A stretch of DNA of 64,000 nucleotides from Gaiellales bacterium (GTDB taxonomy: Bacteria; Actinomycetota; Thermoleophilia; Gaiellales; JAICJC01): NCBI GenBank assembly GCA_036273515.1, contig DASUHM010000049.1:963-64962 (forward strand), in the 5' to 3' direction. A program made the translations under genes and the position numbers. This document shows positions 3,967 to 34,359 of this stretch, piece by piece; the first letter of the stretch is position 1; every line of letters begins with the position of its first letter. The notes beneath the pieces were generated by a model, which did no database searches, was not told the DNA's origin, and saw only the letters and a program-made list of their open reading frames with translations.

Positions 3967-3974
3967 ATGAGGAC

Positions 3975-10955: not shown

Positions 10956-12344
10956 TTAGGGCTTGGCAACGTCGCCCTCCTGCGCGGGCGGGAAGCGCAC
11001 CGCGATGCAGGTGCCGGAGCCCCCCGGCTCGAGCTCCGCGGCGCCGCCCCAGCGGGCCGCCAGGTCGCGCACGATGGCCAGGCCCAGCCCGGTGCCGGGC
11101 GTCTCCCTGCCCGCGCTGCCCCGGTAGAAGCGGTCGAACACGCGCGCCGCCTCGGCCGGGCCGATGCCCGGGCCGTCGTCCCGCACGCGCACGACGCCTT
11201 CGGCGGCCACCGAGACGGCGACGGCGCCGCCGTCTGGGCCGTAGGCGATCGCGTTCTCGATCAGGTTGTCGAGCACGCCGGCGACGTCGCCCGCGTCGGC
11301 GGCGATCGCGACCGGGCCGGCCGGCTCCTCCAGGGTGACCGTGCCGGCGTGCTCTGCGGCGACGGGCCGCCAGCGGTCGGCGGCCGCCCGCGCCTCCTGG
11401 CGCAGGTCGCAGGCCGCCGCGGCCGGGGGCGGAACGCCGGCGCGGGCGAGCACGAGCAGATCGGAGACGAGCTCGGACAGGCGGTCGACCTCGCGCAGCC
11501 CGGCCTGGGCGTCGGCGCTCTCCGGCCCGGTCGAGAGCGATTCCAGCCGCAGTCGCAGGCCGGTCAGCGGCGTTCGCAGCTGGTGCGAGGCGTTGGCGAC
11601 GAACTCGCGCTGCGACTCGATCAGCCCCACCAGCTCGTCCGCCATCCTGTTGAGCGCACGGGCCACGTCGGCGACGTCGGTCGGGCCGGTCTCCGGCGCC
11701 CGCGCGTCCAGGTCGCCGCGGCCGAGCCGCCCGGCCGTCGCCTCGACCGCCTGGATGGGGCGGGCCAGCGAGCTCGCGAGCACCCACGCGACGGCCATCC
11801 CGACCACGCCGACGACCGCCGCGACGACGGCGATCGCGATCCAGCTCCGGTGCACGCGCGCGGCGACCGCCGCGATCGGCTGCGAGAGCCGCACCGCGCC
11901 GACGATCCGGCCCTGGTCGAGGACGGGGTAGGCGACGACGAGCAGGTCGCCGCCGAGGTCCGAGCTGTGCCGGATGATGCGGATGCCGCGGCCGGAGAGG
12001 GCCGTTGAGATCTCGGGACGGCCCGCCGTCGCGAAGCCGACCCGGGCCGGGTTCGGGCGCGTCGAGTCGGCCAGCAGCAGGCCGCGGCCGTTCGTGACGA
12101 CGACGCGGGCGTCGGTCTCGCGGCCGTACCGGGCGACCGCCCGGCGCACGCCGGTCAGCGTGCCGCCGGGGGCGGGGGAGCCGCCGAGCGAGGCGGCGAT
12201 CACCTGCGTCTGCGAGTCGATCCCGGCGTAGAAGGCGTCCTTCGCCCGCCGGTCGACGTTCACGGCCAGCGGCACCGCCAGCGCGACCACCGTGAGCACG
12301 AGCAGGTATGCGAACGCCGCCAGCAGGCGGCCGCGCAGCGTCAC
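10956..12344 (-). CDS. Sensor histidine kinase (two TM helices, HAMP, HisKA, HATPase_c)
   Basis: Two TM helices flank a roughly 140-aa extracytoplasmic loop. H-box ASHQLRTPL. N and G boxes (NLIENAIAY, GTGLGLAIV). Confidence 0.9.
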   Translation of the reverse strand: MTLRGRLLAAFAYLLVLTVVALAVPLAVNVDRRAKDAFYAGIDSQTQVIAASLGGSPAPGGTLTGVRRAVARYGRETDARVVVTNGRGLLLADSTRPNPARVGFATAGRPEISTALSGRGIRIIRHSSDLGGDLLVVAYPVLDQGRIVGAVRLSQPIAAVAARVHRSWIAIAVVAAVVGVVGMAVAWVLASSLARPIQAVEATAGRLGRGDLDARAPETGPTDVADVARALNRMADELVGLIESQREFVANASHQLRTPLTGLRLRLESLSTGPESADAQAGLREVDRLSELVSDLLVLARAGVPPPAAAACDLRQEARAAADRWRPVAAEHAGTVTLEEPAGPVAIAADAGDVAGVLDNLIENAIAYGPDGGAVAVSVAAEGVVRVRDDGPGIGPAEAARVFDRFYRGSAGRETPGTGLGLAIVRDLAARWGGAAELEPGGSGTCIAVRFPPAQEGDVAKP

Positions 12345-13084
12345 CCGGCGAGCTCCGCGGGGGAGGCGAACCGGAAGCCGACGCCGCGCACGGTGTGGAT
12401 GTAGCGGGGCTCGTGGGCGTCATCGCCGAGCCGGCGGCGCAGGCCGGCAATGTGCACGTCGAGCGTCTTCGTCGACCCGAACCAGTCGACGCCCCACACG
12501 TCGTCCATCAGCTTGTTGCGCGCGAGCACGGTGCCGGCGTGGGCCATCAGCATGTGCAGCAGGTCGAACTCGCGCCGGGGCAGGTCGAGGGTCGAGCCGG
12601 CGTGGGTGGCGACATGGGTGGCCGGGTCGATCGAGACGTCGCCGATCTCGATTGCGGTGGGGGTGGCGGCGGCGGCCGGCGCGGCGCGCTCTCCGGTGCG
12701 GCGCAGCACGGCGCGGATGCGGGCGATCAGCTCGGCCATGCTGAACGGCTTGACGAGGTAGTCGTCGGCGCCGAGCTCGAGGCCGACGACGCGGTCGGTC
12801 TCGAGGCCGCGGGCTGTGAGCATGATGATCGGCACGTCCGAGGTCTGGCGGATCGCCCGGCATACGTCGCGGCCGTCGAGATCGGGCAGGTTCAGGTCGA
12901 GCAGGACGATGTCGGGCTCGCCCCGCCGCACCGACTCGAGCCCGCCGTTCCCGGTCGGCTCGACCGAGACGGCGTAGCCCTCGCGCTCGAGCGCCGAGCG
13001 GAGCGGATCCGAGATGGACGCCTCGTCCTCGATGACCGTCACATGGCCGCGAGTCGCCGCCGGTCGCTGCCCGCCTGCCTCCAT
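12341..13084 (-). CDS. OmpR/PhoB-family response regulator
   Basis: Receiver domain (IVLLDLNLPDLDG, ADDYLVKPF) plus winged-helix output (TVRGVGFRF). 4-nt overlap with the kinase. Start at ATG 13084. Confidence 0.9.
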   Translation of the reverse strand: MEAGGQRPAATRGHVTVIEDEASISDPLRSALEREGYAVSVEPTGNGGLESVRRGEPDIVLLDLNLPDLDGRDVCRAIRQTSDVPIIMLTARGLETDRVVGLELGADDYLVKPFSMAELIARIRAVLRRTGERAAPAAAATPTAIEIGDVSIDPATHVATHAGSTLDLPRREFDLLHMLMAHAGTVLARNKLMDDVWGVDWFGSTKTLDVHIAGLRRRLGDDAHEPRYIHTVRGVGFRFASPAELAG

Positions 13085-13133
13085 GCGGGCGAAGTCTAGG
13101 TGGGGCGTTCCGGAAGCGCTGTGGCCGCGGAAA

Positions 13134-13200
13134 CCGGGGTCTGACCCCGAACGGAACTGCAACGGAAGCGTCACGGCCGCCGTTCGGGGTCTGACCCCGG
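13134..13200. repeat. Inverted repeat: two 21-nt arms built on GGGGTCTGACCCCGAACGG, 25-nt spacer
   Basis: Arm 13134-13154 is CCGGGGTCTGACCCCGAACGG. Arm 13180-13200 is CCGTTCGGGGTCTGACCCCGG. They are complementary except at the central base. The same core recurs at 46282 and 58204. Confidence 0.8.
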
Positions 13201-13523
13201 TATGCAGTCAGCGGCGCCGAATACCGCGCTGGCATAACGATCCATGACCAAGAACTTCCGAGAGCAGCGTGACCGGTATCTGTCGACACTGCGAAGCCAT
13301 GTCGCTGCGCTGGATGGCGAGCTCGAGGTCGTCGCGGGTGTTCGGCGACGACGAGATTCGGATCCGCCTGGGCGAGCTCGAACCCGAACCCGAGCCCGCC
13401 TGACACCCAAACGCGGGAGATACCCGGGCCGATCAGGGCGATGCCGGTAGCGAGCGATCGCCGGTCCGGGGGAGTTCGTACCGCCGACGGAATTACCGCA
13501 ACCTGACGATTCGACTCACGGAA

Positions 13524-13576
13524 ATGCAACAGTTGCCGTTGCATATCTTCACGTTGGCGATCTCGTCGTATACGTT
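13524..13576 (+). promoter_or_regulatory. Candidate operator (ATGCAAC-N7-GTTGCAT) plus candidate promoter TTCACG-17-TACGTT upstream of the Tad-linked TCS
   Basis: Perfect 7-bp inverted repeat at 13524-13544. -35-like hexamer at 13548-13553 and -10-like TANNNT at 13571-13576, in an AT-richer stretch about 110 nt before the regulator's start codon. Confidence 0.3.
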
Positions 13577-13686
13577 GAGAGCGCATCTCCGAGGCGGCCC
13601 GGAGAGCACGACATCGCAATCGGTGCCACGCCGCCCGTACGTCCCCATCCGGCGTGGCCCACGACCCCGAAAGAGGCCCGCTTCAG

Positions 13687-14394
13687 ATGGCAGGATCCAC
13701 CGTGCTCGTCGTCGACGATGAACCCCGCATCGTCGAGTTCCTCACCGAGAACCTCCGCGACGACGACTTCACCGTTCTCACCGCCGCGACCGGCGCAGAG
13801 GCGATCGAGCTTCTCGGTCGCGCCCGTCCCGACCTCGTGCTTCTCGACGTCGTGCTCCCCGACATGAGCGGCTACGAGATCTGCCGCACCGTGCGTGCCG
13901 GCGACGGGATCAACGACCCCTGGGATCCCGATCTCCCGATCATCATGCTGAGCGCGAAGGCCGAGCATGTCGACCGCGTCCGCGGCCTGGTGCGCGGGGC
14001 GGATGACTACGTCACGAAGCCTTTCCACTATCCGGAGCTGCTCGCTCGGATCGGCGCGATTCTCGCGCGGGTGTCCCGCTCGCGCGACCGTGAGGTCATC
14101 CGCCACGGCGACCTGTCCGTGAACACGCTCTCGCGCGAGGTCACGGTCGGCGGCATCAAGGTCGACCTCTCGGCCAAGGAGTACCAGCTCCTGACGACGC
14201 TCGCCTCCGAGCCCGGCCGGGTCTTCACGAAGGCCGAGCTGCTCGAGTCGGTGTGGGGGTTCCGGTCGCAGGGACGCACGCGCACGCTCGACTCGCACGC
14301 GAGCCGGCTGCGCCAGAAGCTCCGCGTCCACTCGGGCTCCGGCTGGCTCGCCAACGAGTGGGGCGTCGGCTACCGCCTGTGCAGGCCGGAGTGA
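13687..14394 (+). CDS. OmpR/PhoB-family response regulator (first gene of the Tad operon)
   Basis: Receiver domain (VLVVDDEPRI, LVLLDVVLPDMSG, ADDYVTKPF) and winged helix (LSAKEYQLL...GVGYRL). Confidence 0.9.
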   Translation: MAGSTVLVVDDEPRIVEFLTENLRDDDFTVLTAATGAEAIELLGRARPDLVLLDVVLPDMSGYEICRTVRAGDGINDPWDPDLPIIMLSAKAEHVDRVRGLVRGADDYVTKPFHYPELLARIGAILARVSRSRDREVIRHGDLSVNTLSREVTVGGIKVDLSAKEYQLLTTLASEPGRVFTKAELLESVWGFRSQGRTRTLDSHASRLRQKLRVHSGSGWLANEWGVGYRLCRPE

Positions 14395-15161
14395 TCCGCG
14401 TCCCGCTGCGCCGGCGCCGGACAGGCGTCGACGGCCGTCTCCACGCCTCGGTCGAGGAGCTCGCGACCCTGCTCGCCCGCGAGGAGCGGGCCCGTGCCGA
14501 GTTCATCGGCAAGGTCTCGCACGAGCTGCGCACGCCGCTCACGGTGATCAAGGGCTACGTCTATACGCTCCACCGATCGGAGCACGACCCGGGCAAGGCC
14601 GCCAAGCTCGACGTCATCGACGGCGAGTGCGAGCGGCTCGGCTATCTGATCGAAGACCTGCTCGAGCTCTCGCGCGCACGCGCGGGCGAGCTGCGCGTGA
14701 ACGACGAGGTCTTCCCGCTCGAGCCGTGCGTGAGCGAGGTCGCCGAGCGGCTCCAGACCGTCGCCGAGCAGGGTGGCGTGCGCGTGCGGCTGGACTGGAC
14801 GTGCAACGGCGGGCTCGTGCGCGGCGACCAGAACCGCGTCCGCCAGATCTTCGCCAACCTGATCACGAACGGCATCAAATACGCCCCGCCGGGCACGGAC
14901 GTAACCGTTCGGGGCCGCCGCGTCGAAGACGGGCTCGAGGTGGCGGTGGAGGACGCGGGCCGCGGCATCGCCGAGGCCGATCTGCCGTTCATCTTCGACG
15001 AGTTCTTCCAGGCGCGGCGGCCGGAGCCCGGTGCCGGGCTCGGCCTCGCCGTCGCCCGGGAGCTCACCGAGGCCCACGGCGGCTCGATCGCCGTGACCAG
15101 CGCCGTCGGGAGCGGCTCGCGCTTCGTCGTGACCCTTCCCTGTCTGGGCGATCACGCATGA
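14391..15161 (+). CDS. Cytoplasmic histidine kinase with no sensor or TM region (HisKA + HATPase_c only)
   Basis: GTG at 14391 overlaps the regulator's TGA. H-box VSHELRTPL begins about 45 aa from the start. N box NLITNGIKY, G box GAGLGLAVA. Confidence 0.85.
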   Translation: MIRVPLRRRRTGVDGRLHASVEELATLLAREERARAEFIGKVSHELRTPLTVIKGYVYTLHRSEHDPGKAAKLDVIDGECERLGYLIEDLLELSRARAGELRVNDEVFPLEPCVSEVAERLQTVAEQGGVRVRLDWTCNGGLVRGDQNRVRQIFANLITNGIKYAPPGTDVTVRGRRVEDGLEVAVEDAGRGIAEADLPFIFDEFFQARRPEPGAGLGLAVARELTEAHGGSIAVTSAVGSGSRFVVTLPCLGDHA

Positions 15162-15871
15162 CCGCGGATCCCGCCGGGATCCTGCGGCTGCTCGAGCCCC
15201 CCGCAGGGCCCGAGCCGGCGGCCGCCCGGCCGCTCCGGCTCATCTCGGCCCTCTCGGCCCATGGACGGGTCGCGAGGGCCGAGGGGCTCGCCGGCGCCGG
15301 CGCCGGCCACGAGCTACGCCTGCCCGGGATCGGCGGTCGCTACCTGGCCGGTCTCGCGACGCATGCGCACGAGCAGGGGTGGCACACGTCCGAGGTGGCG
15401 GCCCTGCTCGATGCCGTCGAGGACCGATCCTCGATGTGGATCGTGAGCCCGTCCGCCGCCTCGCTGTGCCGCGCCGGCCTGGCCGAGACGGGCGGAAGCC
15501 GGAAGGCGTGCGCGCGCTGGTCGGCCGGTCGCTGGATGCAGGTGCCGGTGGATCCGGATTCCCTCACGCGCGTGGCGGCCGCCGGGCGGGCCCGTGCGGT
15601 CTGCATCGCCGCGGTGTCGGGCACCGGCGCTCCGCGCAAGCTGGTCGCCGCCGTGGGTGCCGAGGGCGTCGAGCTGGGATGGCTCGACGGCGGCCTCGCG
15701 ACATCGCTCCGTGTGGCGTGGACGGTGGAGCTGCTCGTCGCGCCCGCCGTCCCGGCCGGGTCGCTGATGGCGCTCCGCGAGCGGATCGCCGCGGCGCCGC
15801 GCTGCAGCTGGTGCGGCGTCCCGACGCTGGGCACGGACTGCCCCCGCTGCTTGCCGGGAGCGCGGGCGTGA
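15158..15871 (+). CDS. Hypothetical protein with C-terminal CxxC...CxxC zinc ribbon
   Basis: ATGA overlap with the kinase. 237 aa ending CSWCGVPTLGTDCPRC. No other recognised domain. Confidence 0.6.
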   Translation: MTADPAGILRLLEPPAGPEPAAARPLRLISALSAHGRVARAEGLAGAGAGHELRLPGIGGRYLAGLATHAHEQGWHTSEVAALLDAVEDRSSMWIVSPSAASLCRAGLAETGGSRKACARWSAGRWMQVPVDPDSLTRVAAAGRARAVCIAAVSGTGAPRKLVAAVGAEGVELGWLDGGLATSLRVAWTVELLVAPAVPAGSLMALRERIAAAPRCSWCGVPTLGTDCPRCLPGARA

Positions 15872-16464
15872 GCCGTCACCGCCGTCGCAGTCTCGTCCTC
15901 GCGCTTGTGGGCGTCGTGCTTGCGGTGCTCGGGCTCTCCCGGCTCGGCGCCGGCGCAGACGGACGCGGGCCGACGGGCCGGCGCGTCATTCGCGTCGTCG
16001 CCCTCCGGCCGGTTGCACAGGGCGCCCGGATCGCGGCGGCGGATCTCGGCACCGTGCGGCTTCCGGCGGCGTGGGCGTCGCCGCACCAGCTGGCCGATCC
16101 AGCCGACGCGGTCGGCCGGCGCGCCGCCGTCGCGCTCGTCGCCGGCGCGCCGGTGATGGACGCGGAGGTGTCGGCATCGACGGCGCCCGAAGACGCGCGC
16201 GAGCTGGCACTCCGGCTCGACGAGGCCGCCGGAGTCCCGGCGGGAGATCTCGCGGACGTTCGCGGCGACGTCTACCTCACGACTCCCGGGCGGCGAGGCC
16301 GCACGCGGCTCGTGCTCGCGAACGTGCTCGTGGTGTCGGCGCGGCGCGACGACTCCGGCTCGGTCGCCACGCTCCTCTTGCCGCCAGCGGCCGTGCCGCA
16401 TGCGATCGCGGCGGAGGGCGAGGGCTCCCTGCGGCTGGTGGTGCGCGGAGACGGGGCCGAATGA
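15868..16464 (+). CDS. cpaB: Flp pilus assembly protein CpaB/RcpC
   Basis: GTGA overlap. N-terminal TM anchor, then SAF-like and RcpC-like regions. Position immediately before tadZ. Confidence 0.65.
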   Translation: MSRHRRRSLVLALVGVVLAVLGLSRLGAGADGRGPTGRRVIRVVALRPVAQGARIAAADLGTVRLPAAWASPHQLADPADAVGRRAAVALVAGAPVMDAEVSASTAPEDARELALRLDEAAGVPAGDLADVRGDVYLTTPGRRGRTRLVLANVLVVSARRDDSGSVATLLLPPAAVPHAIAAEGEGSLRLVVRGDGAE

Positions 16465-17540
16465 TCGCGCCGGTCGTCCGCTGCCTCGTCGTCGCCTCCG
16501 ACCCGCTTCTCGGAGCCGAGATGACGGCGCTCGCGGACGACCTGCCCGGCGTCCAGCTCGTCGGCGTGATCGCGCCGCTTCGCGCCGTCGCCGGTCGGCT
16601 GCCACCGTGCGACGTTGCCCTCCTCGCCGACCCGGGCGAGCGCGGTGCGCCTGCCCTGCGCCAGCTCGTCGCCGGGTGCGGCCGGCCCGCCGTCGTGCTG
16701 GCCCGGTCGGCCGGCGTCGACACCTACCGGCGCGCGCTCGCCGCCGGCGCCCGCGCCGTGCTGCCGCTCCCCGCCGTACCTGGGGCCCTCGGCGACGCGC
16801 TCGTCGAAGCGGCGGTCACGCCCGGTCGACCGCCGTCTCCGCCGAGCGGGCGCGTCACGGCGATCCTCGGCGCCAAGGGCGGCACGGGCGCAACCTCGAT
16901 CGCGCTCGCGCTCGCCCGTCTCTCCGGCGCGGCGCTCGTGGACATGTCCGGATCCTGGTCCGGCCTCGGCTCGCTGCTGGGCTGCCAGACCGAGCGCTCG
17001 CTGGCCGATCTCGCCCACGTCGGCGACGGGCTTGCCGCCGCGGTGGCAAGCGCCGCCGTCCAGCACCCGTGCGGGCTGCGGCTGGTGCCCGGCCCGGCCG
17101 GTCCCGAGATCGCCGCGGCGCTTCCCGGCGGGTTCGCCGCCGCGCTCGTGCGCGACCTGCGCGCCGGCGGCCCGGCGGTCGTCGACGCGGGCTGCGGCGC
17201 GTTCACGGCCTCCCGCGAAGCCGCCGTCGCCGCCGATCGCGCGCTCGTCGTCGTGACGCCGGACGCGCCGGCCGCGGTGGGCGGGCGCGAGCTCGTGACG
17301 ACGCTCGCCCGGGCCGGCGCCGCGGACGGCATCCGGGTGGTCGTGAACCGCTGGAGCCGCCGCTCCGAGCTCTCGCTGCGCGGCATCGCCCGGACGGTCG
17401 GCGTCCCCGTCGGCGCGGTCGTCCGCGCCGATGCCGAGTCGCTGGACGCCCTCGCGGACGGCCGCGCCCGGCTCGAGCGGTGGCCCGGCCGCAGGCACGC
17501 CGTGGCGCTGCGCGAGCTGGCCGCGGAGGTGTCGGCGTGA
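16461..17540 (+). CDS. tadZ: TadZ/CpaE ParA/MinD-like pilus localisation ATPase
   Basis: ATGA overlap. N-terminal receiver-like domain, then a deviant Walker A GAKGGTGATSIALALA. Confidence 0.75.
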   Translation: MIAPVVRCLVVASDPLLGAEMTALADDLPGVQLVGVIAPLRAVAGRLPPCDVALLADPGERGAPALRQLVAGCGRPAVVLARSAGVDTYRRALAAGARAVLPLPAVPGALGDALVEAAVTPGRPPSPPSGRVTAILGAKGGTGATSIALALARLSGAALVDMSGSWSGLGSLLGCQTERSLADLAHVGDGLAAAVASAAVQHPCGLRLVPGPAGPEIAAALPGGFAAALVRDLRAGGPAVVDAGCGAFTASREAAVAADRALVVVTPDAPAAVGGRELVTTLARAGAADGIRVVVNRWSRRSELSLRGIARTVGVPVGAVVRADAESLDALADGRARLERWPGRRHAVALRELAAEVSA

Positions 17541-18694
17541 CCGATGCGATCGCCGGCCTCGCGGAGGGCTACCGGGAGCGGCTCCGGCGCGAGCTGCTCG
17601 ACCGGCCGCCGGGCGGCGACCTGCGCGTCGCCGCCGAGCGGGTGGCGTGGGAGCTGCTCCACGGCGATCGCGTCGCGCTCGACCCGGCGGACGCCCGCCG
17701 GCTCGTGGCCGGGATCGTCGACGACACGGTCGGCCTCGGGCCGCTCGACCCGCTGCTGCGCGACCGCGGCGTGACCGAGGTGATCGCGAACGGCCCGGGC
17801 CGGGTCTATGCCGAGCGGTCGGGCCGGCTCGTGCGTGAGTCGGTCGCGTTTCGCGACGAGGAGCACCTGCGCCAGGTGATCGATCGCGTCGTCAGCTCCG
17901 TCGGCCGGCGCGTCGACGAGTCCAGTCCGATGGTCGATGCCCGCCTTCCGGACGGGAGCCGGGTGAACGCGGTGCTTCCCCCGATCGCCCTCGACGGCCC
18001 GCTGCTCACGATTCGGAAGTTCGCGCGGGCGCCGTTCCGGGTCGACGACCTGGTCGCGGCGGGCAGCCTCACCCCCGGGCAGGCGGATCTGCTCGAGCGC
18101 TGCGTCCGCGGGCGGCTGAACGTCGTCGTCTCGGGCGGCACCGGGACCGGGAAGACGACGCTCCTGAACGCGCTCGCTGGCTTCATCGACCCGGCCGAGC
18201 GGATCGTCACCGTCGAGGACGCCGCCGAGCTGCGGCTGCCGCAGCCCCACGTCGCCCGGCTCGAGAGCCGGCCGCCGAACGTCGAGGGCCGCGGCGAGGT
18301 GACGCTCCGCGCCCTCGTGCGCAACGCGCTTCGGATGCGCCCGGATCGGATCGTCGTCGGCGAGGTGCGCGGCGGCGAGGCGCTCGACATGCTCCAGGCG
18401 ATGAACACCGGGCACGACGGCTCGCTCACCACCGTCCATGCGAGCTCGCCGGGCGACGCCGTGCGCCGGATCGAGACGATGGCGCTCATGGCCGGGCTCG
18501 ACCTCCCGCACGTCGCCGTGCGCGAGCAGGTTGTCTCGGCGGTGGACGTGATCGTCCACCTGGTCCGCGACGGCGACGGCTCGCGGCGGGTGCGGTTCGT
18601 CGACGCCCGCGGCCGCGACGGCCAGCTGCACATGCTGGACCCGCGGCTCCTGAGCGAGCTCGAGGAGCGCCGATGCGCCTACGGCGGTCCCTGA
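17537..18694 (+). CDS. tadA: TadA/CpaF secretion ATPase
   Basis: GTGA overlap. Walker A GGTGTGKTT, Asp box, Walker B RIVVGEVRGGEA, His box TGHDGSLTTVHA. Confidence 0.9.
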   Translation: MTDAIAGLAEGYRERLRRELLDRPPGGDLRVAAERVAWELLHGDRVALDPADARRLVAGIVDDTVGLGPLDPLLRDRGVTEVIANGPGRVYAERSGRLVRESVAFRDEEHLRQVIDRVVSSVGRRVDESSPMVDARLPDGSRVNAVLPPIALDGPLLTIRKFARAPFRVDDLVAAGSLTPGQADLLERCVRGRLNVVVSGGTGTGKTTLLNALAGFIDPAERIVTVEDAAELRLPQPHVARLESRPPNVEGRGEVTLRALVRNALRMRPDRIVVGEVRGGEALDMLQAMNTGHDGSLTTVHASSPGDAVRRIETMALMAGLDLPHVAVREQVVSAVDVIVHLVRDGDGSRRVRFVDARGRDGQLHMLDPRLLSELEERRCAYGGP

Positions 18695-19227
18695 GCGCGC
18701 AGGCGCAGGCGGCTCAGCTGGCGCTGGTCGTCGAGATCCTCGCGGCCCACGTTCGCGCCGGCCGGTCGCTCTCGCAGGCGCTCGTGGATGCGGTCGAGGA
18801 TGCGCCCGAGCCGATCGACGCGCGTGTCGGGGCCGCCGCAGCGGCCGCGGCGTTGGGAACGCCGGTCGCCGATGCACTCGGAATGCTCGGCGACAGCCCC
18901 GACGTGGCATACCTCGCCGCCGCGGTGCGCCTGCAGATACGCGCGGGCGGCGATCTCGCGCTCCTGCTCGAACGCACCGCCGAGCTCCTGCACGAGCGCC
19001 GCGCCCAGCGCCGGGCGGCCGAGGTGGCGACTGCACAGGCCCGGGCGACCGGCCGGATCGTCAGCGGGATGCCGGGCCTCGGGGTGGCGGCGCTCTACCT
19101 GGCCGATCGGCCCGGGTTCGACCTGCTCGTGCGCGCGCCGCTCGGATGGGTGGCCCTGGCGATGTCGGCCGGCCTGGCAGCGCTCGGCCACGTGTTGATC
19201 CGGCGGCTGTCCGAGGTCGACCCGTGA
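18673..19227 (+). CDS. tadB: TadB-like type II secretion system F-domain protein
   Basis: T2SSF-type region with a C-terminal TM pair. Follows tadA with a 22-nt overlap. Confidence 0.65.
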   Translation: MRLRRSLSAQAQAAQLALVVEILAAHVRAGRSLSQALVDAVEDAPEPIDARVGAAAAAAALGTPVADALGMLGDSPDVAYLAAAVRLQIRAGGDLALLLERTAELLHERRAQRRAAEVATAQARATGRIVSGMPGLGVAALYLADRPGFDLLVRAPLGWVALAMSAGLAALGHVLIRRLSEVDP

Positions 19228-20021
19228 TCGCCTGGCTACTGCTCCTCGCGGCGGCCTTCACGCTGTCCGAAGCTCGTCGCGCCGCCGTCCGCGACCGCCG
19301 CCTGAACCCGCCTGAACGGGCTCGCGGCGGAAGCCCGTCGGTGCGTCTGCTCGAGGCGGCCGGGCGCGCGCCGGCGGCGCTGCTCGCGACGCGTGGGGTG
19401 GATGTGCCGCCGTTCCGGGCCGGCGCGGTGGCGGTCGCGGGCGGACTCGCCGTCCTCGCGCTCACGGCCATCGGCGGAGTGACCGGGATCCTGGCGGCGC
19501 TCGCGGTGGCCGGCTTCGGCGCCGCCTATCCGGCGTTGTGGATGCGCGCCGCTGCGGCCCGCCGCGCGGAGCGGATCGAGCGGCGGGTTCCGGAGCTCGT
19601 CGAGCTGGTCGCGAGCGCCGTCGCCGCGGGCGTCGGCCTGGACGCGTCCCTGCGCGGGGCGGGGGAGGCGGTCGGCGGTGAGCTGGGCGCCGAGCTCGAC
19701 CTCGCGTACGCCAACATCGGCCTCGGCCGGCCGCGCGCGGACGAGCTGCGCGACCTGGCCGCCCGGACGGGGTCGCCGTCGCTGGCGCGGCTGGCGCTCA
19801 CGCTGCGGCTGAGCGACCGCCTCGGCGTCCCGTTGGCGGAGTCTCTGCGCCGCCAGGCCGATCGCGCGAGGACGCAGCGCGCCCGCGCGGTCCAGGAGCG
19901 GGCGGCGAAGGCCGGGCCGCGGGTGCTCGTCGTCGTGGTGTTCGTGCTCGTGCCGGCGGCGCTCCTCCCGCTCGTGGCCGCCGTGCTCCTGACTGTCGCG
20001 GGCTCGTTGTCGGGTTTCTGA
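19224..20021 (+). CDS. tadC: TadC-like type II secretion system F-domain protein
   Basis: GTGA overlap. N-terminal TM helices, T2SSF-type central region, C-terminal TM pair. Confidence 0.65.
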   Translation: MIAWLLLLAAAFTLSEARRAAVRDRRLNPPERARGGSPSVRLLEAAGRAPAALLATRGVDVPPFRAGAVAVAGGLAVLALTAIGGVTGILAALAVAGFGAAYPALWMRAAAARRAERIERRVPELVELVASAVAAGVGLDASLRGAGEAVGGELGAELDLAYANIGLGRPRADELRDLAARTGSPSLARLALTLRLSDRLGVPLAESLRRQADRARTQRARAVQERAAKAGPRVLVVVVFVLVPAALLPLVAAVLLTVAGSLSGF

Positions 20022-20077
20022 CGAAAGCCGCACACGTCGTCACCCACACGTGACGCTTGCATCTCTAGCCTCGAACC

Positions 20078-20332
20078 ATGCATCGCGGTCAGGCCACCAT
20101 CGAGTACGTCCTCCTGCTGACGGCGCTCATGGTGGGCCTGTGCGTGCTCGTGCGCTACGAGACCCCGGTGCGCTGGTTGGCGCGCGCGATCACCCACGCG
20201 CTCCCGCATCGGCAGGGTGGCGGAGGTGGCGGCGGCCACGGCCACGGGCCCGAGCACCGCCGGCCGTATCCGTGTGTGTGTCCGCAACCCGAGGAGGTGG
20301 GCCGGTTGACGTCGCCGTCACCAGGGGATTAA
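20078..20332 (+). CDS. flp: Flp-family type IVb pilin precursor
   Basis: Class III leader and Flp motif MHRG|QATIEYVLLLTALMVGL (G-x4-EY). Unusual Gly/His-rich C-terminal tail. Confidence 0.65.
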   Translation: MHRGQATIEYVLLLTALMVGLCVLVRYETPVRWLARAITHALPHRQGGGGGGGHGHGPEHRRPYPCVCPQPEEVGRLTSPSPGD

Positions 20333-20387
20333 TCTGTGTCCGCATCGGCCAGGTCGTGGGGAGGTCGGGCATCGTGAGGCGGTTCGC

Positions 20388-21749
20388 GTGAGCGGCCATG
20401 GGCGAGTGAAGGACGGGAGCACACCGTCGCCAACGCCGCTGGTCCCGCTCGAGCCGGACGTCGTGGGGGCGCCGCCGTCCGGACCCGGATACCGCATTCC
20501 GAGCAAGCGCCGGCGCCGCCGCTGGCTGATGGCCTTCCTGGTGGTCTGGACGCTCATCACCGTCGGAGTGGGCCTCGCCTGGTACCAGTACGGGCGCCTC
20601 TCGCACGAGCTGCGGGTCTCGAACGGCCGCGTCGGCGGGCCGCTCAAGCACGCGCTCACGCCGGCGCCGGCCGGGGCGCCGCGGCAGACGACGCTCGTCG
20701 CCGGGATGGGCTCGAACGGCCATCTCGCCGGTGCGGTGATCCTGACGCGGATCGACTCGACGAGGCACGCCGTCGAGATCCTCACCGTGCCCTCCACCGT
20801 TCTGCTCGACGGTTCGCAACAGGTGGGCGACGTGGTGCGCGCGGAAGGCGTCCCTGGCGTCATCGGGCTGCTCGAGCACAACCTGGGCCTGCCGGTCAAC
20901 CATGTCCTCCTGATGCAGCTCGCCCAGGCGGGGTCGATCGTGCGCTCGCTGGGCGGGATCGAGATCACGAACCCGGCCCCGGTGCCCTACGATGTGAGCG
21001 GCGGCCGCGGCGTGTTCCCGGCCGGTCGCGTTGCGCTCACCGGCCGCACGGTGCAGTGGTACCTCGATCCGACCGAGCGTCCGGTCACGACCGCCCCGGA
21101 CGTCCGCCAGGCGGCGGTGGCCCGGGGCGTGACGGACAAGCTGGTGCACCTGACCACGCCGTCGGCGATCACGGCGGTGGGGCACACGATCTCGCGCAAC
21201 TTCACGACCGACCTCTCCACCGACCCGGTGCTCGGGCTGGTCGCCGGCCGGCTGCGTGCGCACCGGCTCGTCGAGTGCCGCCTCGGCGCGGGCGCCGACC
21301 TCACGCAAGGCTCGCGGCTGCCGGCGATCGCCGGCTTCGAGACGGCGGCTCCCGGGGCATCGTGCTCGTCGGTCCCTCTGCAGACGAAGCTTCCGGCGGC
21401 AGGTGTGGCCGCCACCATCATCGCGACACTCGTCACCCACGGCGGGTCACGCGCGCTCTACTGGCTCGTCGTCGCCACGATCGCGATCTGGGGCATCGCG
21501 GCGTGCGCCTGGATCCTGATGCTTCCGGCCGTCCGCGGCGTGCGCCGGCTGCCGCGCCGGTCGCTGCCGCCGCGAGGGAGCAGGCGCCCGCACCTCGCGC
21601 TGCCCCACGTCAGGCTGCCGGAGCGTCCGCCCCGGGCCTACGGGCGCCTCCGCCGCAGCCGCCGGCACATCGCCGTGACGGGGCTTCGCGTGCTCTCGGT
21701 GCCCGTCTCGATCGGCCTCGGCATGCTGATCGCCTATCTGCTCTACTGA
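20388..21749 (+). CDS. LytR-CpsA-Psr (LCP) family protein with extra C-terminal TM helices
   Basis: Cytoplasmic N-terminus, TM anchor, then an LCP-like core (TTLVAGMG...AVILTRIDSTRHAVEILTVPSTVLL...NHVLLMQL). Confidence 0.55.
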   Translation: MSGHGRVKDGSTPSPTPLVPLEPDVVGAPPSGPGYRIPSKRRRRRWLMAFLVVWTLITVGVGLAWYQYGRLSHELRVSNGRVGGPLKHALTPAPAGAPRQTTLVAGMGSNGHLAGAVILTRIDSTRHAVEILTVPSTVLLDGSQQVGDVVRAEGVPGVIGLLEHNLGLPVNHVLLMQLAQAGSIVRSLGGIEITNPAPVPYDVSGGRGVFPAGRVALTGRTVQWYLDPTERPVTTAPDVRQAAVARGVTDKLVHLTTPSAITAVGHTISRNFTTDLSTDPVLGLVAGRLRAHRLVECRLGAGADLTQGSRLPAIAGFETAAPGASCSSVPLQTKLPAAGVAATIIATLVTHGGSRALYWLVVATIAIWGIAACAWILMLPAVRGVRRLPRRSLPPRGSRRPHLALPHVRLPERPPRAYGRLRRSRRHIAVTGLRVLSVPVSIGLGMLIAYLLY

Positions 21750-23318: not shown

Positions 23319-24722
23319 GTGGCCGCGGCCGCACCCTCCGCAGACATCGTCAGCGAGAACCCCGCCGACCCGGCCGACCGCATCGGGACGTTCGTGCCCG
23401 GCGGCGGCATCGACGTCGACCGGGCTGTCTCCGCCGCGGCCGCCGCCGCGCCCGGCTACGCGGCCCAGCCGGCGCAGGCCCGCGCCGACGCCCTGAACCG
23501 GGCCGCGGCCCGCGTCGAGGCGCGGGCGGCGGAGCTGGCAGAGCTGATCCGCCGCGAGGTGGGGAAGCCCGTGCTCGAGGCCCGCGGCGAGGTTGCCCGC
23601 ACCGCCGCCATCCTGCGCTACCACGCCCAGGCCGCCCTCGACCCCGACGGCGACACGTTCCCGTCCGGCGACGGCCGCTCGCTGCTCATGGCCCGGCGCC
23701 GCCCCCGCGGCGTCGTCGGCCTGATCACGCCCTGGAACTTCCCCATCGCCATCCCGGCCTGGAAGCTCGCGCCCGCGCTCGCCTACGGCAACGCGTGCGT
23801 GTGGAAGCCCTCGCCGTTCTCGCCCGCCTGCGCCGCGGCGCTGCTCGAGTGCCTCGCGCCCGAGCTGCCGGCGGAGGTCGTCCACATGGTGCAGGGCCGC
23901 GCCGACGCCGGCGCCGCCCTCGTCGGCCATCCCGGCGTGCACGCGATCTCGTTCACCGGCTCGGTCGCGACCGGGAACACCGTCGCCCGGATGGCGGTCG
24001 AGCGCGGCGCGGCCGCCCAGTGCGAGATGGGCGGGCAGAACGCCTCGATCGTGCTCGCCGACGCCGACCTCGAGGCGGCCGCCGCCACGATCGCGACCGC
24101 TGCGATGGGCTACGCCGGCCAGAAGTGCACCGCCACCAGCCGCGTCATCTGCGACGGCGCGATCGCCGCAGGGATGCGTGAGGCCCTGGTGGCCGCGGTC
24201 GAGGGCCTCGCCATCGAGGATCCGGCCGACGAGGCCTGCCGGGTCGGGCCGCTGATCTCGGCCGACGCCCGCGACGCCGCCGCCGCGGCGGTGAAGCGCG
24301 GGGTGGAGGCGGGCGGGAAGCTGCTCGCCGGCGGCGCGGCGCTCGACGCTCCCGGCAACTACCTGGCGCCGGCCCTGGTCGAGGTCGACGACCGGTCCGC
24401 CGAGCTGGCCCAGGAGGAGATCTTCGCGCCGGTCTGCGCCCTCATGCGCGTCGACGGGGCGGACGCGGCCGTCGAGCTCGCAAACGGCGTCCGCCACGGC
24501 CTCGTCACCGCCGTCTTCACGCGCGACCTCGACCGCGCGCTCGACCTGGCCAACCGGCTCGACACCGGCCTCGTGCGCATCAACCAGCCCACGTCTGGCG
24601 TCGACCTGCACACGCCGTTCGGCGGCGAGAAGGCATCCGGCCTCGGCCCGCGCGAGCAGGGCAAGGCCGCGCGCGAGTTCTACACCAGCCTGCGCACGGT
24701 GTTGATCTCACCCTCGTGCTAG
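23319..24722 (+). CDS. NAD(P)-dependent aldehyde dehydrogenase
   Basis: Start at in-frame GTG 23319. Catalytic Glu (CEMGGQNA) and Cys (GQKCTATSR) motifs, plus FTGS. Confidence 0.85.
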   Translation: MAAAAPSADIVSENPADPADRIGTFVPGGGIDVDRAVSAAAAAAPGYAAQPAQARADALNRAAARVEARAAELAELIRREVGKPVLEARGEVARTAAILRYHAQAALDPDGDTFPSGDGRSLLMARRRPRGVVGLITPWNFPIAIPAWKLAPALAYGNACVWKPSPFSPACAAALLECLAPELPAEVVHMVQGRADAGAALVGHPGVHAISFTGSVATGNTVARMAVERGAAAQCEMGGQNASIVLADADLEAAAATIATAAMGYAGQKCTATSRVICDGAIAAGMREALVAAVEGLAIEDPADEACRVGPLISADARDAAAAAVKRGVEAGGKLLAGGAALDAPGNYLAPALVEVDDRSAELAQEEIFAPVCALMRVDGADAAVELANGVRHGLVTAVFTRDLDRALDLANRLDTGLVRINQPTSGVDLHTPFGGEKASGLGPREQGKAAREFYTSLRTVLISPSC

Positions 24723-24742
24723 GGTAGTCACGAGGTCTATAA

Positions 24743-25441
24743 GTGGCCGAGGCCCAACATCCGCGCGTCGCCGCAGATGTCGCCGTGTTCGCCTTCCTGG
24801 ACGGCGCCATGAACGTCCTTCTCGTCCGCCGTCGCTACGAGCCGTACGAGAGCTACTGGGCGCTGCCCGGCGGCCTGCTCGAGCCGGACGAGACGCTCGA
24901 GGAGGCGGCCGAGCGCGAGCTGCGCGAGGAGACTGGCGTCACCGACACCTACATGGAGCAGCTCGCCACCTTCTCGCAGGTCGACCGCGACCCGCGCGGG
25001 CGGGTGATCTCGTGCTGCTACCTGGCCCTCGTCGACGGCGGCCGGGTACGGCTGCGGCCGGGGTCGGACGCCCGCGAGGCGGCCTGGCGGCCGCTCGAGG
25101 CGCTGCTGCGCGAGACCGACGAGGGCACCGTGCTCGCCTTCGACCACGACCGCATCCTGGCGTACGCCCGCCAGCGGCTGGCCTACAAGCTCGAATACCA
25201 GAACGTGGCCTGGAGCCTCCTGCCCGAGACGTTCACGCTCTCGGAGCTGCGGCGCGTCTACGAGGCCGGCATCGGCCGGGCGTTCGAGCCGAACAACTTC
25301 CGCCGCATCGCCCTCGGCTGGGGCGTCCTGGCCGAGTCGGGCGAGCGGCCCACCGGCGGCCGCCCGGCCGCGACCTACCGCTTCGCCGACACGCGGCCGC
25401 TGATCCTGGCCCAGAGCGCCCGCTACCGGAGGTCGGGATGA
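24743..25441 (+). CDS. nrtR: NrtR-type Nudix-related transcriptional regulator
   Basis: Nudix box GGLLEPDETLEEAAERELREETGV, then a C-terminal winged-helix segment LLPETFTLSELRRVYEAGIGRAFEPNNFRR. Sits before NAD salvage genes. Confidence 0.75.
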   Translation: MAEAQHPRVAADVAVFAFLDGAMNVLLVRRRYEPYESYWALPGGLLEPDETLEEAAERELREETGVTDTYMEQLATFSQVDRDPRGRVISCCYLALVDGGRVRLRPGSDAREAAWRPLEALLRETDEGTVLAFDHDRILAYARQRLAYKLEYQNVAWSLLPETFTLSELRRVYEAGIGRAFEPNNFRRIALGWGVLAESGERPTGGRPAATYRFADTRPLILAQSARYRRSG

Positions 25442-26742
25442 TCGCCTGGCCGCCCGTCGAGCTCATGACCGACGAGTACCAGCTGGCGATGGCCGACTCG
25501 TACCTGGCCCAGGGCAAGGCCGAGGGCGAGGTCGCGTTCGAGCTCTTCGTGCGGGCCATGCCGCCCGACCGCGGCTTCCTGGTGGCGGCCGGCCTCGAGC
25601 GCGTGTGCGAGTACCTGACGACCTTCCGCTTTGGAACGGAGGCGGTGGACTACCTGCGCCGCTCGCGGACGGTCAGCGACCCGCTGCTGCGCCATCTGGC
25701 GTCCCTGCGGTTCGAGGGCGGCGTCGACGCCGTCCCCGAGGGCACGGTCGTCCACGCCGGCGAGCCGCTCGTGCGGGTCGAGGGCGGCCGCCTCGTCTGC
25801 CAGCTGGCCGAGACGTTCCTGCTGAACCAGGTGAACTTCCAGACCATGATCGCGACGAAGGCGGCCCGCATCGTCGGCGCCGCCGGCTGGCGGCCGGTGA
25901 TCGACTTCGGCTTCCGCCGCGCCCACGGCGCCGACGCGGGGCTGCTGGCGGCCCGCTCGGCCTACATCGGCGGCTGCTCGGCCACCGCCACCGTCGCGGC
26001 CGGCTACCTGTGGGGCATCCCGACGTCGGGGACGATGGCGCACAGCTACGTGCTCTCGTTCCCGACCGACGTCGAGGCGTTCTGCGCGTTCATGCGCGAC
26101 CACCCCCACCGCTCGACGCTCCTGATCGACACCCACGACGCCCTCACCGGCGCCCGCGCCGCCTGCCAGGCGGCCCAAATCACCGGGATCGTGCCCCAGG
26201 CGGTGCGGCTCGACTCCGGCGACCTGGTCGAGATGACGACCGCGGTGCGCGGGATCCTGGACCGGGGCGGCTGCACGGAGACGAAGATCGTGTGCTCCGG
26301 CGACCTCGACGAGTACCGCATCGCCAAGCTGCTCGCCGCCGGTGCGCCGATTGACGGGTTCGGCGTCGGCACGGCGCTCACGACGTCGAACGACGCGGCC
26401 GCGCTCGGCGGCGTCTACAAGCTCGTCGAGAGCGACGGCCGGCCGGTGATGAAGGCGGCCGGGACGAAGTCGAACCTGCCCGGCCGCCATCAGGTATTCC
26501 GCACGGTGGCGGGCGACACCATCGGCCTGGTGGGCGAGGAGGTCGTCGGCCAGCCGCTGCTCCAGCCCGTCATCCGCGACGGCGCGCTGATCGAGCCGCT
26601 GCCATCGCTGGGCGAGATCCGCGACCGCGCCGCCGCCCAGGTCGCCGCGCTGCCCGAACGGGTACGGGCACTGCGCGACCCCGACACCCAGCCGCCGGTG
26701 CACTCGCCCCGGCTTGCAGCCCTCGAGGAGGAACTCTCATGA
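25438..26742 (+). CDS. pncB: Nicotinate phosphoribosyltransferase
   Basis: ATGA overlap. N-terminus LMTDEYQLAMADSYL. Length and motifs fit the NAPRTase family. Confidence 0.85.
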   Translation: MIAWPPVELMTDEYQLAMADSYLAQGKAEGEVAFELFVRAMPPDRGFLVAAGLERVCEYLTTFRFGTEAVDYLRRSRTVSDPLLRHLASLRFEGGVDAVPEGTVVHAGEPLVRVEGGRLVCQLAETFLLNQVNFQTMIATKAARIVGAAGWRPVIDFGFRRAHGADAGLLAARSAYIGGCSATATVAAGYLWGIPTSGTMAHSYVLSFPTDVEAFCAFMRDHPHRSTLLIDTHDALTGARAACQAAQITGIVPQAVRLDSGDLVEMTTAVRGILDRGGCTETKIVCSGDLDEYRIAKLLAAGAPIDGFGVGTALTTSNDAAALGGVYKLVESDGRPVMKAAGTKSNLPGRHQVFRTVAGDTIGLVGEEVVGQPLLQPVIRDGALIEPLPSLGEIRDRAAAQVAALPERVRALRDPDTQPPVHSPRLAALEEELS

Positions 26743-28079
26743 CCGGCTCCGACGCGACCACCGCGCTGATCGTGGTCGACATGCAGAACGACTTCTGCCC
26801 CGGCGGCGCCCTGGGAGTGGCCGGGGGCGACCTGCTCGCGCCCGCGCTCGCGCGCGCCGCCGAGGGCGCCGGCACGGTCGTCGCGACCCGCGACCGTCAC
26901 CCGGCCGACCACATCTCGTTCACCGACCGGGGCGGCCCGTGGCCGCCGCACTGCGTCGTCGGGACGCCCGGCGCCGAGTTCCACGCGTCGGTCGCCGGCA
27001 TGCACTTCGACCGCGTCCAGGACAAGAGCAGCGACCCCGACCAGGAGACGTACTCGGGCTTCGACGGCACCGGCCTCGGCGACTACCTGCGCGAGCGCGG
27101 GGTGACGCGGGTCGTGATCGGCGGCCTCGCCACCGACTACTGCGTGCGGGCGACGGCCCTGGCTGCCATCGAGGAGGGGTTCGAGACGACGGTGCTGACC
27201 GACGCGATCGCGGCCGTCGAGGTCGCGCCCGGCGACGGCCGCCGCGCCCTGGCCGAGATCGCGGCGGCGGGCGGCACGCTCGACCGGCTCGACCTCCTCC
27301 GCGACGAGGCGACGCTCGAGCCGATCCTCGAGCGCAAGGCCGAGCGCCTGCGCGAGGTGCTGGACGCGGCAGGGCGGGGGAAGCTCGTGATCGGCCTCTC
27401 CGGCGGCATCGACTCGGCGGTGGCGATGGCCTTCGCGGCCCGCACGATCGGCCCCGAGCACGTCGTCGCCGTGCGGCTGCCGTCGCGGCACACCGAGCAG
27501 GTGCACGTCGACGACGCCGCCGCCTCGGCGGTCGCGGCCGGCCTGCCCGGGGAGAACCTGCTGACCGTCTCGATCGACCCGATGGTCGAGGCGCTGGCCT
27601 CGGCCCGCCCGACGCTGCACGAGTCCGACATCCGCGAGGGCAATGCCAGCGCCCGGGCGCGCATGATCGTGATCTACGACCTCGCCCAGGAGCTGCACGC
27701 GCTCGTCATCGGCACCGAGAACCGCACCGAGAACCTGCTCGGCTACTTCACCCGCTTCGGCGACGCGGCCTCGGACATCGAGCCGATCACCGACCTCTAC
27801 AAGACCGAGGTGCGGGCGGCGGCGCGCGTGCTGGGGCAGCCGCAGGCGGTGCTCGACAAGCACCCGACGGCCGGCCTCTGGGGTGGGCAGACCGACGAGG
27901 ACGAGCTCGGCTTCACCTACGCCGAGGCCGATCGCGCGCTCGTCGCCATGTACGACCTGGGCCTGTCGCCCGAGGCCGCGGCGCGGCGCGCGGGCGTCGA
28001 CCTGGACGTCGTGCGGCGGGTGAAGGCGCGGGCCGAGTCTGTCGCGTGGAAGCACGCCGTGCCCTACCCGCTGGCATGA
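26739..28079 (+). CDS. Bifunctional nicotinamidase (PncA) / NH3-dependent NAD+ synthetase (NadE) fusion
   Basis: The N-terminal 190 aa are isochorismatase-like (VVDMQNDF, ATDYCV). The C-terminal half is NadE with PP-loop GLSGGIDSAV. Confidence 0.8.
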   Translation: MTGSDATTALIVVDMQNDFCPGGALGVAGGDLLAPALARAAEGAGTVVATRDRHPADHISFTDRGGPWPPHCVVGTPGAEFHASVAGMHFDRVQDKSSDPDQETYSGFDGTGLGDYLRERGVTRVVIGGLATDYCVRATALAAIEEGFETTVLTDAIAAVEVAPGDGRRALAEIAAAGGTLDRLDLLRDEATLEPILERKAERLREVLDAAGRGKLVIGLSGGIDSAVAMAFAARTIGPEHVVAVRLPSRHTEQVHVDDAAASAVAAGLPGENLLTVSIDPMVEALASARPTLHESDIREGNASARARMIVIYDLAQELHALVIGTENRTENLLGYFTRFGDAASDIEPITDLYKTEVRAAARVLGQPQAVLDKHPTAGLWGGQTDEDELGFTYAEADRALVAMYDLGLSPEAAARRAGVDLDVVRRVKARAESVAWKHAVPYPLA

Positions 28080-28083
28080 AAAA

Positions 28084-28119
28084 GGGGCCTGGCCCCGCCT
28101 CGCGGCAGGGCCAGGCCCA
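28084..28119. terminator. Bidirectional stem-loop between convergent nadE-fusion and sigma genes
   Basis: GGGCCTGGCCC (28085-28095) pairs perfectly with GGGCCAGGCCC (28108-28118) across a 12-nt loop. An A-run lies upstream. Confidence 0.6.
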
Positions 28120-28133
28120 GGTCGTTCCGGCCG

Positions 28134-34346: not shown

Positions 34347-34359
34347 CCTTCGCGCGAGC

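Follow-up and report, generated by a model that had tools for sequence, protein, structure and literature searches.

We analysed a window of 64,000 nucleotides from an uncultured Gaiellales bacterium (Thermoleophilia, Actinomycetota; GenBank assembly GCA_036273515.1, contig DASUHM010000049.1), with a base composition of about 73% G+C, in which the genes of a two-component system (TCS) stand directly in front of genes for a Tad-type pilus machine. Nine open reading frames (ORFs) follow one another on the plus strand without interruption, with G+C contents at the third codon position (GC3) of 0.84–0.95, and the frame plot agrees with the proposed reading frames across the entire region. Six overlaps of 4 nt and one of 22 nt connect the first eight genes, which span positions 13687–20021, and a gene for a putative pilin follows them. 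Judged from sequence and gene order, the response regulator (RR), the histidine kinase (HK), a lineage-specific protein of 237 amino acids (aa) and the Tad-type genes are a unit, conserved throughout the order Gaiellales, in one tightly overlapping, predicted operon. The nine genes are given below, with Pfam E-values in brackets.

13687–14394, plus strand: OmpR/PhoB-family response regulator, 235 aa (Response_reg 3e-28, Trans_reg_C 2e-21)
14391–15161, plus strand: soluble, sensor-less histidine kinase, 256 aa (HisKA 2.5e-16, HATPase_c 1.4e-28)
15158–15871, plus strand: lineage-specific cytoplasmic protein, 237 aa, with an alpha/beta domain and a C-terminal CxxC...CxxC ribbon
15868–16464, plus strand: CpaB/RcpC-like protein with an N-terminal membrane anchor and a SAF domain (SAF 3.4e-8, above the cut-off)
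16461–17540, plus strand: TadZ/CpaE/Ssd-like ParA-family ATPase with a degenerate receiver-like N-terminal domain
17537–18694, plus strand: TadA/CpaF secretion ATPase, 385 aa (T2SSE 6.2e-67)
18673–19227, plus strand: TadB-like platform protein, 184 aa, short and without an N-terminal transmembrane helix (T2SSF 2.5e-12)
19224–20021, plus strand: TadC-like platform protein, 265 aa (T2SSF 1.1e-15)
20078–20332, plus strand: Flp-like class III signal pilin precursor with the leader MHRG, the mature start QATIEY, a hydrophobic helix and a CxC motif

Adjacent genes meet at the following positions.

14391: RR and HK genes, GTGA
15158: HK gene and the gene of the 237-aa protein, ATGA
15868: gene of the 237-aa protein and cpaB, GTGA
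16461: cpaB and tadZ, ATGA
17537: tadZ and tadA, GTGA
18673–18694: tadA and tadB, 22-nt overlap
19224: tadB and tadC, GTGA
Before 20078: tadC and the pilin gene, 56-nt gap

An earlier reading made from the letters alone (the sequence-only reading) had described an eight-gene chain of overlaps here, and translation of the ORFs confirmed every junction at the position it had given. The seven overlapping junctions in succession are the longest such run in the window. The start codons are supported by comparison. That of the RR aligns in orthologues with ATGGC(C/T) behind AAGGAG, and that of the HK aligns with GGAGTGATCCGC and GGCATGATCCGC, the consensus across orthologues being (G/A)TGATCCGC with a kept N-terminus of MIR..RRRR; in locus L085 the HK start codon is an unambiguous ATG. 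A minus-strand ORF at 15340–16401, chosen by a crude gene caller, was discarded as an antisense artefact: its translation is Arg-rich with a G+C content of 0.66 at the second codon position (GC2), and the plus strand opposite it carries the SAF match and the conserved protein family.

The same genes recur beyond the window. We compared the loci L002, L082/83, L084/85, L086, L087, L088 and L089 and the P0132 contig, and the order RR, HK, 237-aa protein, SAF protein and TadZ, continuing into TadA, TadB and TadC, was found on one strand in 9/9 loci examined, as far as the contigs reach. Synteny thus bears out the linkage of RR and HK to tad in 9/9 loci carrying the 237-aa family, and the junction pattern is kept in relatives whose proteins are only 40–70% identical. 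Homologues of the window's proteins at 90% identity bear the label Gaiellales bacterium, and the best species-level genome match of TadA is a Gaiellales metagenome-assembled genome (MAG) at 69% identity. Part of the locus has an exact copy on one short ENA metagenome contig and nowhere else. Of the 80 TadA loci of GTDB species closest to that of the window, L002 alone reproduces the full arrangement, and many of the 80 show just the receiver-like N-terminus of TadZ. In the long-read metagenome assemblies behind L086 and L088, the operon contains many frameshifts, with split calls for RR, HK and TadA, which are probably assembly errors rather than pseudogenes. At L069 (6426–11125; Ornatilinea apprima, Chloroflexota), two HK genes and an OmpR-type RR gene lie directly 5' of a gene for a 475-aa TadA-family ATPase on the same strand, and tblastn found no TadZ, TadB or TadC at that locus. 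Here a TCS and a Tad-like ATPase may have been joined independently.

The sequence-only reading had placed an OmpR-type RR/HK pair as the leading cistrons, which is supported both by Pfam scores above the cut-offs and by synteny. Pfam searches covered about 50 of some 65 gene calls in the window. The RR scored 98.6 bits for Response_reg and 76.3 bits for Trans_reg_C, above the curated cut-offs, and the residues D10/D11, D54, S89 and K111 were found by direct reading. With a receiver that has the phospho-acceptor Asp and a winged-helix output domain, it belongs to the OmpR/PhoB type; its best NCBIfam models are PhoB and MtrA, both below their equivalog cut-offs, and its orthologue in L002 is 74% identical. 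The HK scored 59.9 bits for HisKA and 99.9 bits for HATPase_c, again above the curated cut-offs, and direct reading revealed an intact catalytic core with H44 in the DHp domain and the N, G1, F and G2 boxes. Pfam and hydropathy found no sensor or transmembrane input in the HK of the window, in which about 33 residues without any hydrophobic segment precede HisKA. The HK orthologues in the closer relatives L082 and L085 have 256–257 aa, and those in the divergent L002, L087 and P0132 contig have 319–330 aa, with two transmembrane helices and HAMP; a loop of only about five residues separates these helices in L087. Because the divergent relatives keep the two helices and HAMP, the sensor-less HK is most simply explained as a putative derived loss of an intramembrane-type input.

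The assignment of the downstream genes to a Tad machine is of uneven strength. The component identities proposed by the sequence-only reading hold above the cut-offs for TadA, TadB and TadC, and those of CpaB and TadZ are reached only below them. TadA scored 226 bits for T2SSE against a cut-off of 24.9 and 352.8 bits for the TadA family model TIGR03819, just under its cut-off of 373. TadB and TadC, with 47.3 and 58.2 bits for T2SSF against a cut-off of 25.2, are two separate single-domain platform proteins. Besides its SAF domain, the CpaB-like protein scored 18.4 bits for RcpC, below the Pfam cut-off of 28.8, and matched TIGR03177 (pilus_cpaB) with an E-value of 9.6e-14 and 51.2 bits against a cut-off of 71. 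The TadZ-like protein, in which the Walker A motif KGGTGAT is conserved, scored 19.3 bits for CbiA (Pfam cut-off 25.4) and matched TIGR03815 (Ssd) with an E-value of 2.7e-15 and 56 bits against a cut-off of 154, and its orthologues match PF26563 (Rv3660c_N) weakly. Its N-terminal domain was considered as a second phospho-acceptor for the HK and rejected, since direct reading found neither the conserved Lys nor the acidic pair.

A canonical tad locus for comparison was found in a Gaiellaceae MAG (L072, 6270–14032), with Flp_Fap pilin, TadE, CpaB, TadZ, a TadA of 488 aa, TadC and a 614-aa fusion of a VWA domain with TadB. The TadZ-like protein of the window matches the bona fide TadZ of this locus (BLASTP E-value 2e-11 over 263 aa), and its CpaB-like protein gave no significant pairwise match to the CpaB there. 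The two loci come from the same order of bacteria and share a core of CpaB-like, TadZ-like, TadA, TadB and TadC proteins, and their TadA proteins are about 60% identical. L072 differs in its true Flp_Fap pilin, its upstream TadE, the VWA–TadB fusion and the longer TadA, and it has neither a TCS nor the 237-aa protein. From these sequence comparisons, the two types of tad system appear to be paralogous. A DUF192-like gene also flanks the canonical locus (4139–4489, minus strand), as seen by eye.

The gene between the HK and cpaB encodes a protein of a narrowly distributed family. No match to the 237-aa protein was found in Pfam, NCBIfam or PDB sequences, and a PDB profile search with its alignment returned nothing; a DUF2138 match with an E-value of 0.053 was dismissed as noise. 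The family comprises 107–134 clusters at 90% identity, for which all source names given are Gaiellales, and an exhaustive profile search of 1.84 billion representatives yielded only 57 matches. Among relatives, the protein diverges to 40% identity, or about 57–97 bits against the profile; LRLPGIGGRY, several Trp and Gly positions and the C-terminal CxxC...CxxC are invariant. A confident AlphaFold2 model built from 49 sequences reached a predicted local distance difference test (pLDDT) value of 83.7 and a predicted template-modelling (pTM) score of 0.80. The fatty-acid-binding DegV/FakB proteins are the sole family among the top 45 Foldseek matches of this model in the PDB, with E-values from 1e-6 to 4e-3 and TM-scores of 0.36–0.45; the overlap is partial, covering about 150–165 columns at about 12% identity. 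In its predicted fold, the protein resembles the alpha/beta ligand-binding DegV/FakB proteins, and it is not a member of that family, having no Pfam DegV match and a partial structural match. Compared with DegV/FakB, it carries an extra Cys4 ribbon.

In 9/9 loci examined, the gene of this protein sits between the HK gene and cpaB, and other contexts were not found there. Since its gene lies exactly between the two and overlaps both, is linked no less strictly to the tad genes than to the TCS and is kept whether or not the HK has transmembrane helices and HAMP, the 237-aa protein could be a cytoplasmic pilus assembly factor, for example a partner of TadZ or TadA, rather than a signalling accessory. 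The HK would then be otherwise regulated or constitutive, and the TCS would only set the expression level. We find this rather doubtful, as no known Tad component matches the fold or the family in Pfam, NCBIfam or Foldseek searches, and the canonical locus of L072 does without the protein, which fits a role limited to the TCS-linked version.

The last gene of the run is separated from tadC. The sequence-only reading had placed flp 56 nt after tadC; the position stood, and so did a Flp-type motif, but membership of the Flp_Fap family did not. The product reads MHRG followed by QATIEY, a G|XXXXEY signature of Flp type before a hydrophobic helix, and orthologues share G|QA(T/S)(I/V)E(Y/V). No Flp_Fap match was obtained from Pfam at E ≤ 0.1, whereas the Flp of L072 scores 33.8 bits. 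Sub-threshold matches to Pfam Class_IIIsignal were obtained in 3/4 orthologues tested, with E-values of 0.02 for the window and of 3.7e-4 and 5e-3 in other loci. The family has 46 clusters, Gaiellales where named. His, Arg, Pro and Gly abound in the tail (GGGGGGGHGHGPEHRRP in the window), which closes with an invariant C-x-C-P; such a tail is uncommon for Flp pilins and suggests possible binding of metal or nucleic acid. The very short basic leader ending in G, the Q at +1, the E at +5 and the shortness of the pilin recall archaeal class III/Epd-like pilins, which have been proposed as ancestors of Tad (Denise et al. 2019, PMC6668835). The window differs from the archaeal systems in that its score stays below the gathering threshold, the machine is of the bacterial Tad type (TadA, TadZ, CpaB) and no archaeal-type peptidase was seen.

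Such a pilin could also belong to a Tad-like apparatus for DNA uptake or DNA transfer rather than to an adhesive Flp pilus, with the TCS acting as a competence-type switch. Micrococcus luteus is said to have Flp-dependent competence, the best NCBIfam model of the ATPase (the one with 352.8 bits) is named 'TadA family conjugal transfer-associated ATPase', and the basic His/Arg/Pro-rich tail could bind nucleic acid or metal. In addition, the pilin is not Flp_Fap, a separate canonical Flp/TadE locus exists in the order, and com genes together with Flp pili are the topic of a paper on M. luteus (PMC8467076). We nevertheless consider this reading improbable: genes for ComEA, ComEC, a helicase or a relaxase do not lie next to the locus, either in the window or in relatives, the ATPase score lies below the cut-off of that family, and any role of the tail is conjectural.

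Candidate regulatory elements were identified by comparing the loci upstream of the RR gene and of the pilin gene.

13525–13543: palindrome TGCAAC-N7-GTTGCA, a candidate operator ending 4 nt before the -35
13544–13547: 4-nt gap from the palindrome to the -35
13548–13553, plus strand: putative -35, TTCACG (TTCCAN in relatives)
13554–13570: spacer of exactly 17 nt
13571–13576, plus strand: putative -10, TACGTT
13670–13676, plus strand: ribosome-binding site of the RR gene, AAAGAGG
20066–20071, plus strand: -10-like hexamer TAGCCT, 6 nt before the pilin ATG, which has no Shine-Dalgarno sequence

The palindrome is the sole match in the 64-kb window at ≤2 mismatches, and at the same stringency it occurs once per locus in L002 and L082–L087, 139–166 nt 5' of the RR start. 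In L082, L085, L086 and L002, the promoter reads TTCCAG, TTCCAT or TTCCAA, then N17, then TACGTT or TAGGAT, so that the hexamers and the 17-nt spacing are kept while the flanks diverge. The predicted 5' untranslated region (UTR) of the RR gene has roughly 100 nt. A riboswitch or leader there was considered and dropped because the consensus fold has only -2.9 kcal/mol and shows no convincing covariation, and an Rfam scan of the region gave only a chance microRNA match (E 0.48). A 68-codon ORF at 13244–13450 (plus strand), with no Pfam match, lies inside the 512-bp divergent intergenic region. On the other side of this region, a second, conventional TCS diverges from the operon (10956–13174, minus strand), consisting of an OmpR-type RR with a weak GlnR_1st match (12341–13174) and a membrane HK that contains HAMP (10956–12344), overlapping by 4 nt. 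Orthologues of this second TCS lie about 7 kb downstream on the opposite strand in L084–L086 and are absent within 10 kb in L082 and L002. Relatives in which the second TCS is not a neighbour still have the palindrome and promoter in front of the RR operon, so these elements can be assigned to it rather than to the divergent genes.

The pilin gene probably has a separate promoter that would give a leaderless mRNA. The motif TA(G/C)(C/G)(C/G)T lies 6–7 nt before the pilin start in all five orthologous loci, including those with inserted genes, and a separate transcript would fit the fact that the pilin gene is separable from tadC in relatives. In L082, a dehydrogenase gene is inserted between the two. 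In L084/L085, it is the gene of a small protein (15090–15365) that has a signal peptide and a Gly-rich stretch and bears the sortase-type sorting signal LPFTG. Five loci share a further conserved box, CAC(A/C)CGT(G/C)AC (20047–20054 in the window), about 11 nt 5' of the -10-like hexamer.

Taken together, we regard it as somewhat more probable than not that the locus is a clade-specific Gaiellales operon joining a signalling module to a monoderm-type Tad machine by co-transcription and translational coupling. Transcription would start from the conserved promoter about 100 nt 5' of the RR gene, and one mRNA beginning near 13583 would extend to the end of tadC. The palindrome beside the weak -35 would be the site of action of the phosphorylated RR, or possibly of a different regulator. 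If the RR binds there, the module might control its own synthesis along with that of the pilus motor and platform. Because the HK of this sublineage has lost its membrane anchor and HAMP, its activity would have to be set from inside the cell, and the most likely input might be the DegV-like/Zn-ribbon protein, encoded by the gene that overlaps the HK gene at its 3' end. The pilin would probably be transcribed separately, just 3' of tadC, as a leaderless mRNA, and its cleavage after Gly4 would be the task of a prepilin peptidase whose gene lies in another part of the genome. A more ambitious version of this proposal appears unlikely in its entirety, and we put it forward tentatively: the RR, the core-only HK and the DegV-like/Zn-ribbon protein might form a three-part signalling device, in which the last of these would sense a ligand for the HK in the cytoplasm, such as a signal derived from lipids or fatty acids, and the device would be wired to a divergent Tad system with an archaeal-like, His/Arg-rich, CxC-tailed pilin. 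Together they would amount to a new sensor family and a new subtype of Tad, peculiar to Gaiellales.

Several observations weigh against the proposed operon and its mechanism. Overlaps of 4 nt make up 21 of the 49 same-strand junctions in the window (43%), for example in the dcw and glycine-cleavage operons; being common in this genome, they are by themselves no proof of special coupling. CpaB, TadZ and the pilin all fall below the curated family cut-offs of Pfam and NCBIfam, and the DegV likeness of the modelled 237-aa protein is only partial, with no sequence-level signal. A scan of 12900–21000 for strict consensus promoters and terminators returned zero sites, which is uninformative because of the 73% G+C; the promoter emerged only by comparing loci. 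OmpR/PhoB-family regulators usually bind direct repeats, and the conserved element is an inverted repeat, so that another regulator may bind it. The palindrome is absent near the pilin gene in the window, L002 and L082–L087, and the conserved box found there differs from it.

The proportion of 4-nt overlaps and the lack of an RR-type motif upstream of the pilin gene would also suit another account, in which the TCS and tad genes are neighbours only through the tight packing of a compact genome, the regulon of the TCS is unrelated and the adjacency has no regulatory meaning. We hold this to be very improbable. Order and junctions are kept in 9/9 loci while the flanks have been rearranged, as seen in the upstream insertion of about 9 kb in the window and in the differing inserts 3' of tadC in L082 and L085. 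The arrangement is also nearly absent from the 80 nearest TadA relatives of other lineages, where only L002 is full and L069 has HK-HK-RR, and there is no space for an intergenic promoter between the genes. The conserved order with rearranged flanks and the rarity among TadA relatives argue for a retained clade-specific unit.

The window does not contain everything that a Tad pilus requires. No Peptidase_A24 protein (TadV/CpaA) was found among the gene calls of the 64 kb scanned with Pfam, and the multi-transmembrane proteins there are MraY, FtsW, VKOR and an LCP-like protein. No TadE or TadF was found in the window either (no TadE Pfam match), whereas the TadE of L072 was readily detected, and six-frame motif scans of the window and the orthologous loci revealed no second class III-type N-terminus. 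The sequence-only reading had noted that prepilin peptidase and TadE/F were missing and had called the locus incomplete or split; Pfam, hydropathy and the six-frame scan agree with the former, and we accept the latter as correct. One prepilin peptidase sometimes serves more than one system (Denise et al. 2019, PMC6668835). Since such enzymes can be shared, and since a canonical tad locus exists in a Gaiellaceae MAG, split is the likelier of the two. A protein with five transmembrane helices encoded after tadC in L067 was rejected as a TadV candidate because it is a PEMT/ICMT-type methyltransferase. At 57165–58194, the window has three small membrane-protein ORFs, the first of which (106 aa, at 57165) gave a sub-threshold match to archaeal Pilin_N (E 0.0056) that is probably due to chance and was treated as noise.

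The surroundings of the operon are partly shared with its relatives. Genes for an FHA-domain protein and a DUF192 protein are its syntenic upstream neighbours in every relative examined (window 3051–4322; L002 4159–5344; L082 1–1122; L084 1714–3104). In L002, about 600 bp separate the end of the DUF192 gene from the RR gene; in the window, about 9 kb with genes for GH10, GT2, an epimerase, SnoaL, small secreted proteins and the second TCS lies between. Downstream, the stretch 23319–29177 encodes an aldehyde dehydrogenase, an NrtR-type NUDIX regulator, NAPRTase, an isochorismatase–NAD synthase and a sigma-70 factor, and is syntenic with L002 and L088. The dcw cell-division cluster occupies 30832–46256, where MraY, FtsW, FtsQ and FtsZ were verified by Pfam.

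Control of Tad pili by a TCS has precedents. In Pseudomonas aeruginosa, PprAB is encoded next to the tad locus and is not known to be fused into the pilus assembly operon; PprB is not regarded as an OmpR-type regulator, the tad locus comprises several transcription units, and the regulon includes BapA and CupE. Two-component control of type IVb/Flp pilus genes by PprA-PprB has been reported (PMC3510237, PMC6821963). According to passages of a study of Pectobacterium, the RR ECA0785 and the HK ECA0786 flank flp/tad, and the RR activates flp, rcpA, rcpB and tadA (Nykyri et al. 2013, PMC3767616). The likeness to the window lies in an OmpR-family RR and a HisKA kinase directly beside flp/tad. As far as those passages describe it, the Pectobacterium system differs in belonging to a diderm proteobacterium with a secretin and a BaeS-like sensor kinase, whereas the HK of the window is sensor-less and all junctions overlap; the passages mention no equivalent of the 237-aa protein (PMC3767616). 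The sequence-only reading had called the layout non-standard. It is uncommon, but the TCS-adjacent tad loci of Pectobacterium and Pseudomonas are precedents for it.

The machine itself resembles a monoderm type. The Rv3654c–Rv3660c type of Mycobacterium tuberculosis has a secretin-less Tad set like that of the window, and the TadZ and TadA of the window best match NCBIfam models of this neighbourhood (TIGR03815 Ssd and TIGR03819), below the equivalog cut-offs. Unlike the window, the M. tuberculosis locus includes genes of TadE/F type, and its operon is not known to contain a TCS or a DegV-like gene.

In summary, a TCS dedicated to a tad locus is not new, and what the locus adds to Tad biology is incremental, given the TCS-linked tad loci of Proteobacteria. 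Four features, all conserved in this order, appear undescribed, namely a TCS fused into the assembly operon, an HK without a sensor, the orphan DegV-like/Zn-ribbon protein and the atypical pilin. A literature search on Gaiellales, pili and tad found no papers. Gaiellales are abundant soil actinobacteria and almost entirely uncultured, and we know of no account of their surface structures and signalling. The locus appears to show a kinase that shed its membrane input while retaining a dedicated partner protein. Being compact and conserved and having a complete Tad motor and platform, the locus lends itself to transfer into a heterologous host, where the switching-on of a monoderm Tad pilus could be followed. 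If the 237-aa partner is indeed the sensor, it would define a new family of input modules.

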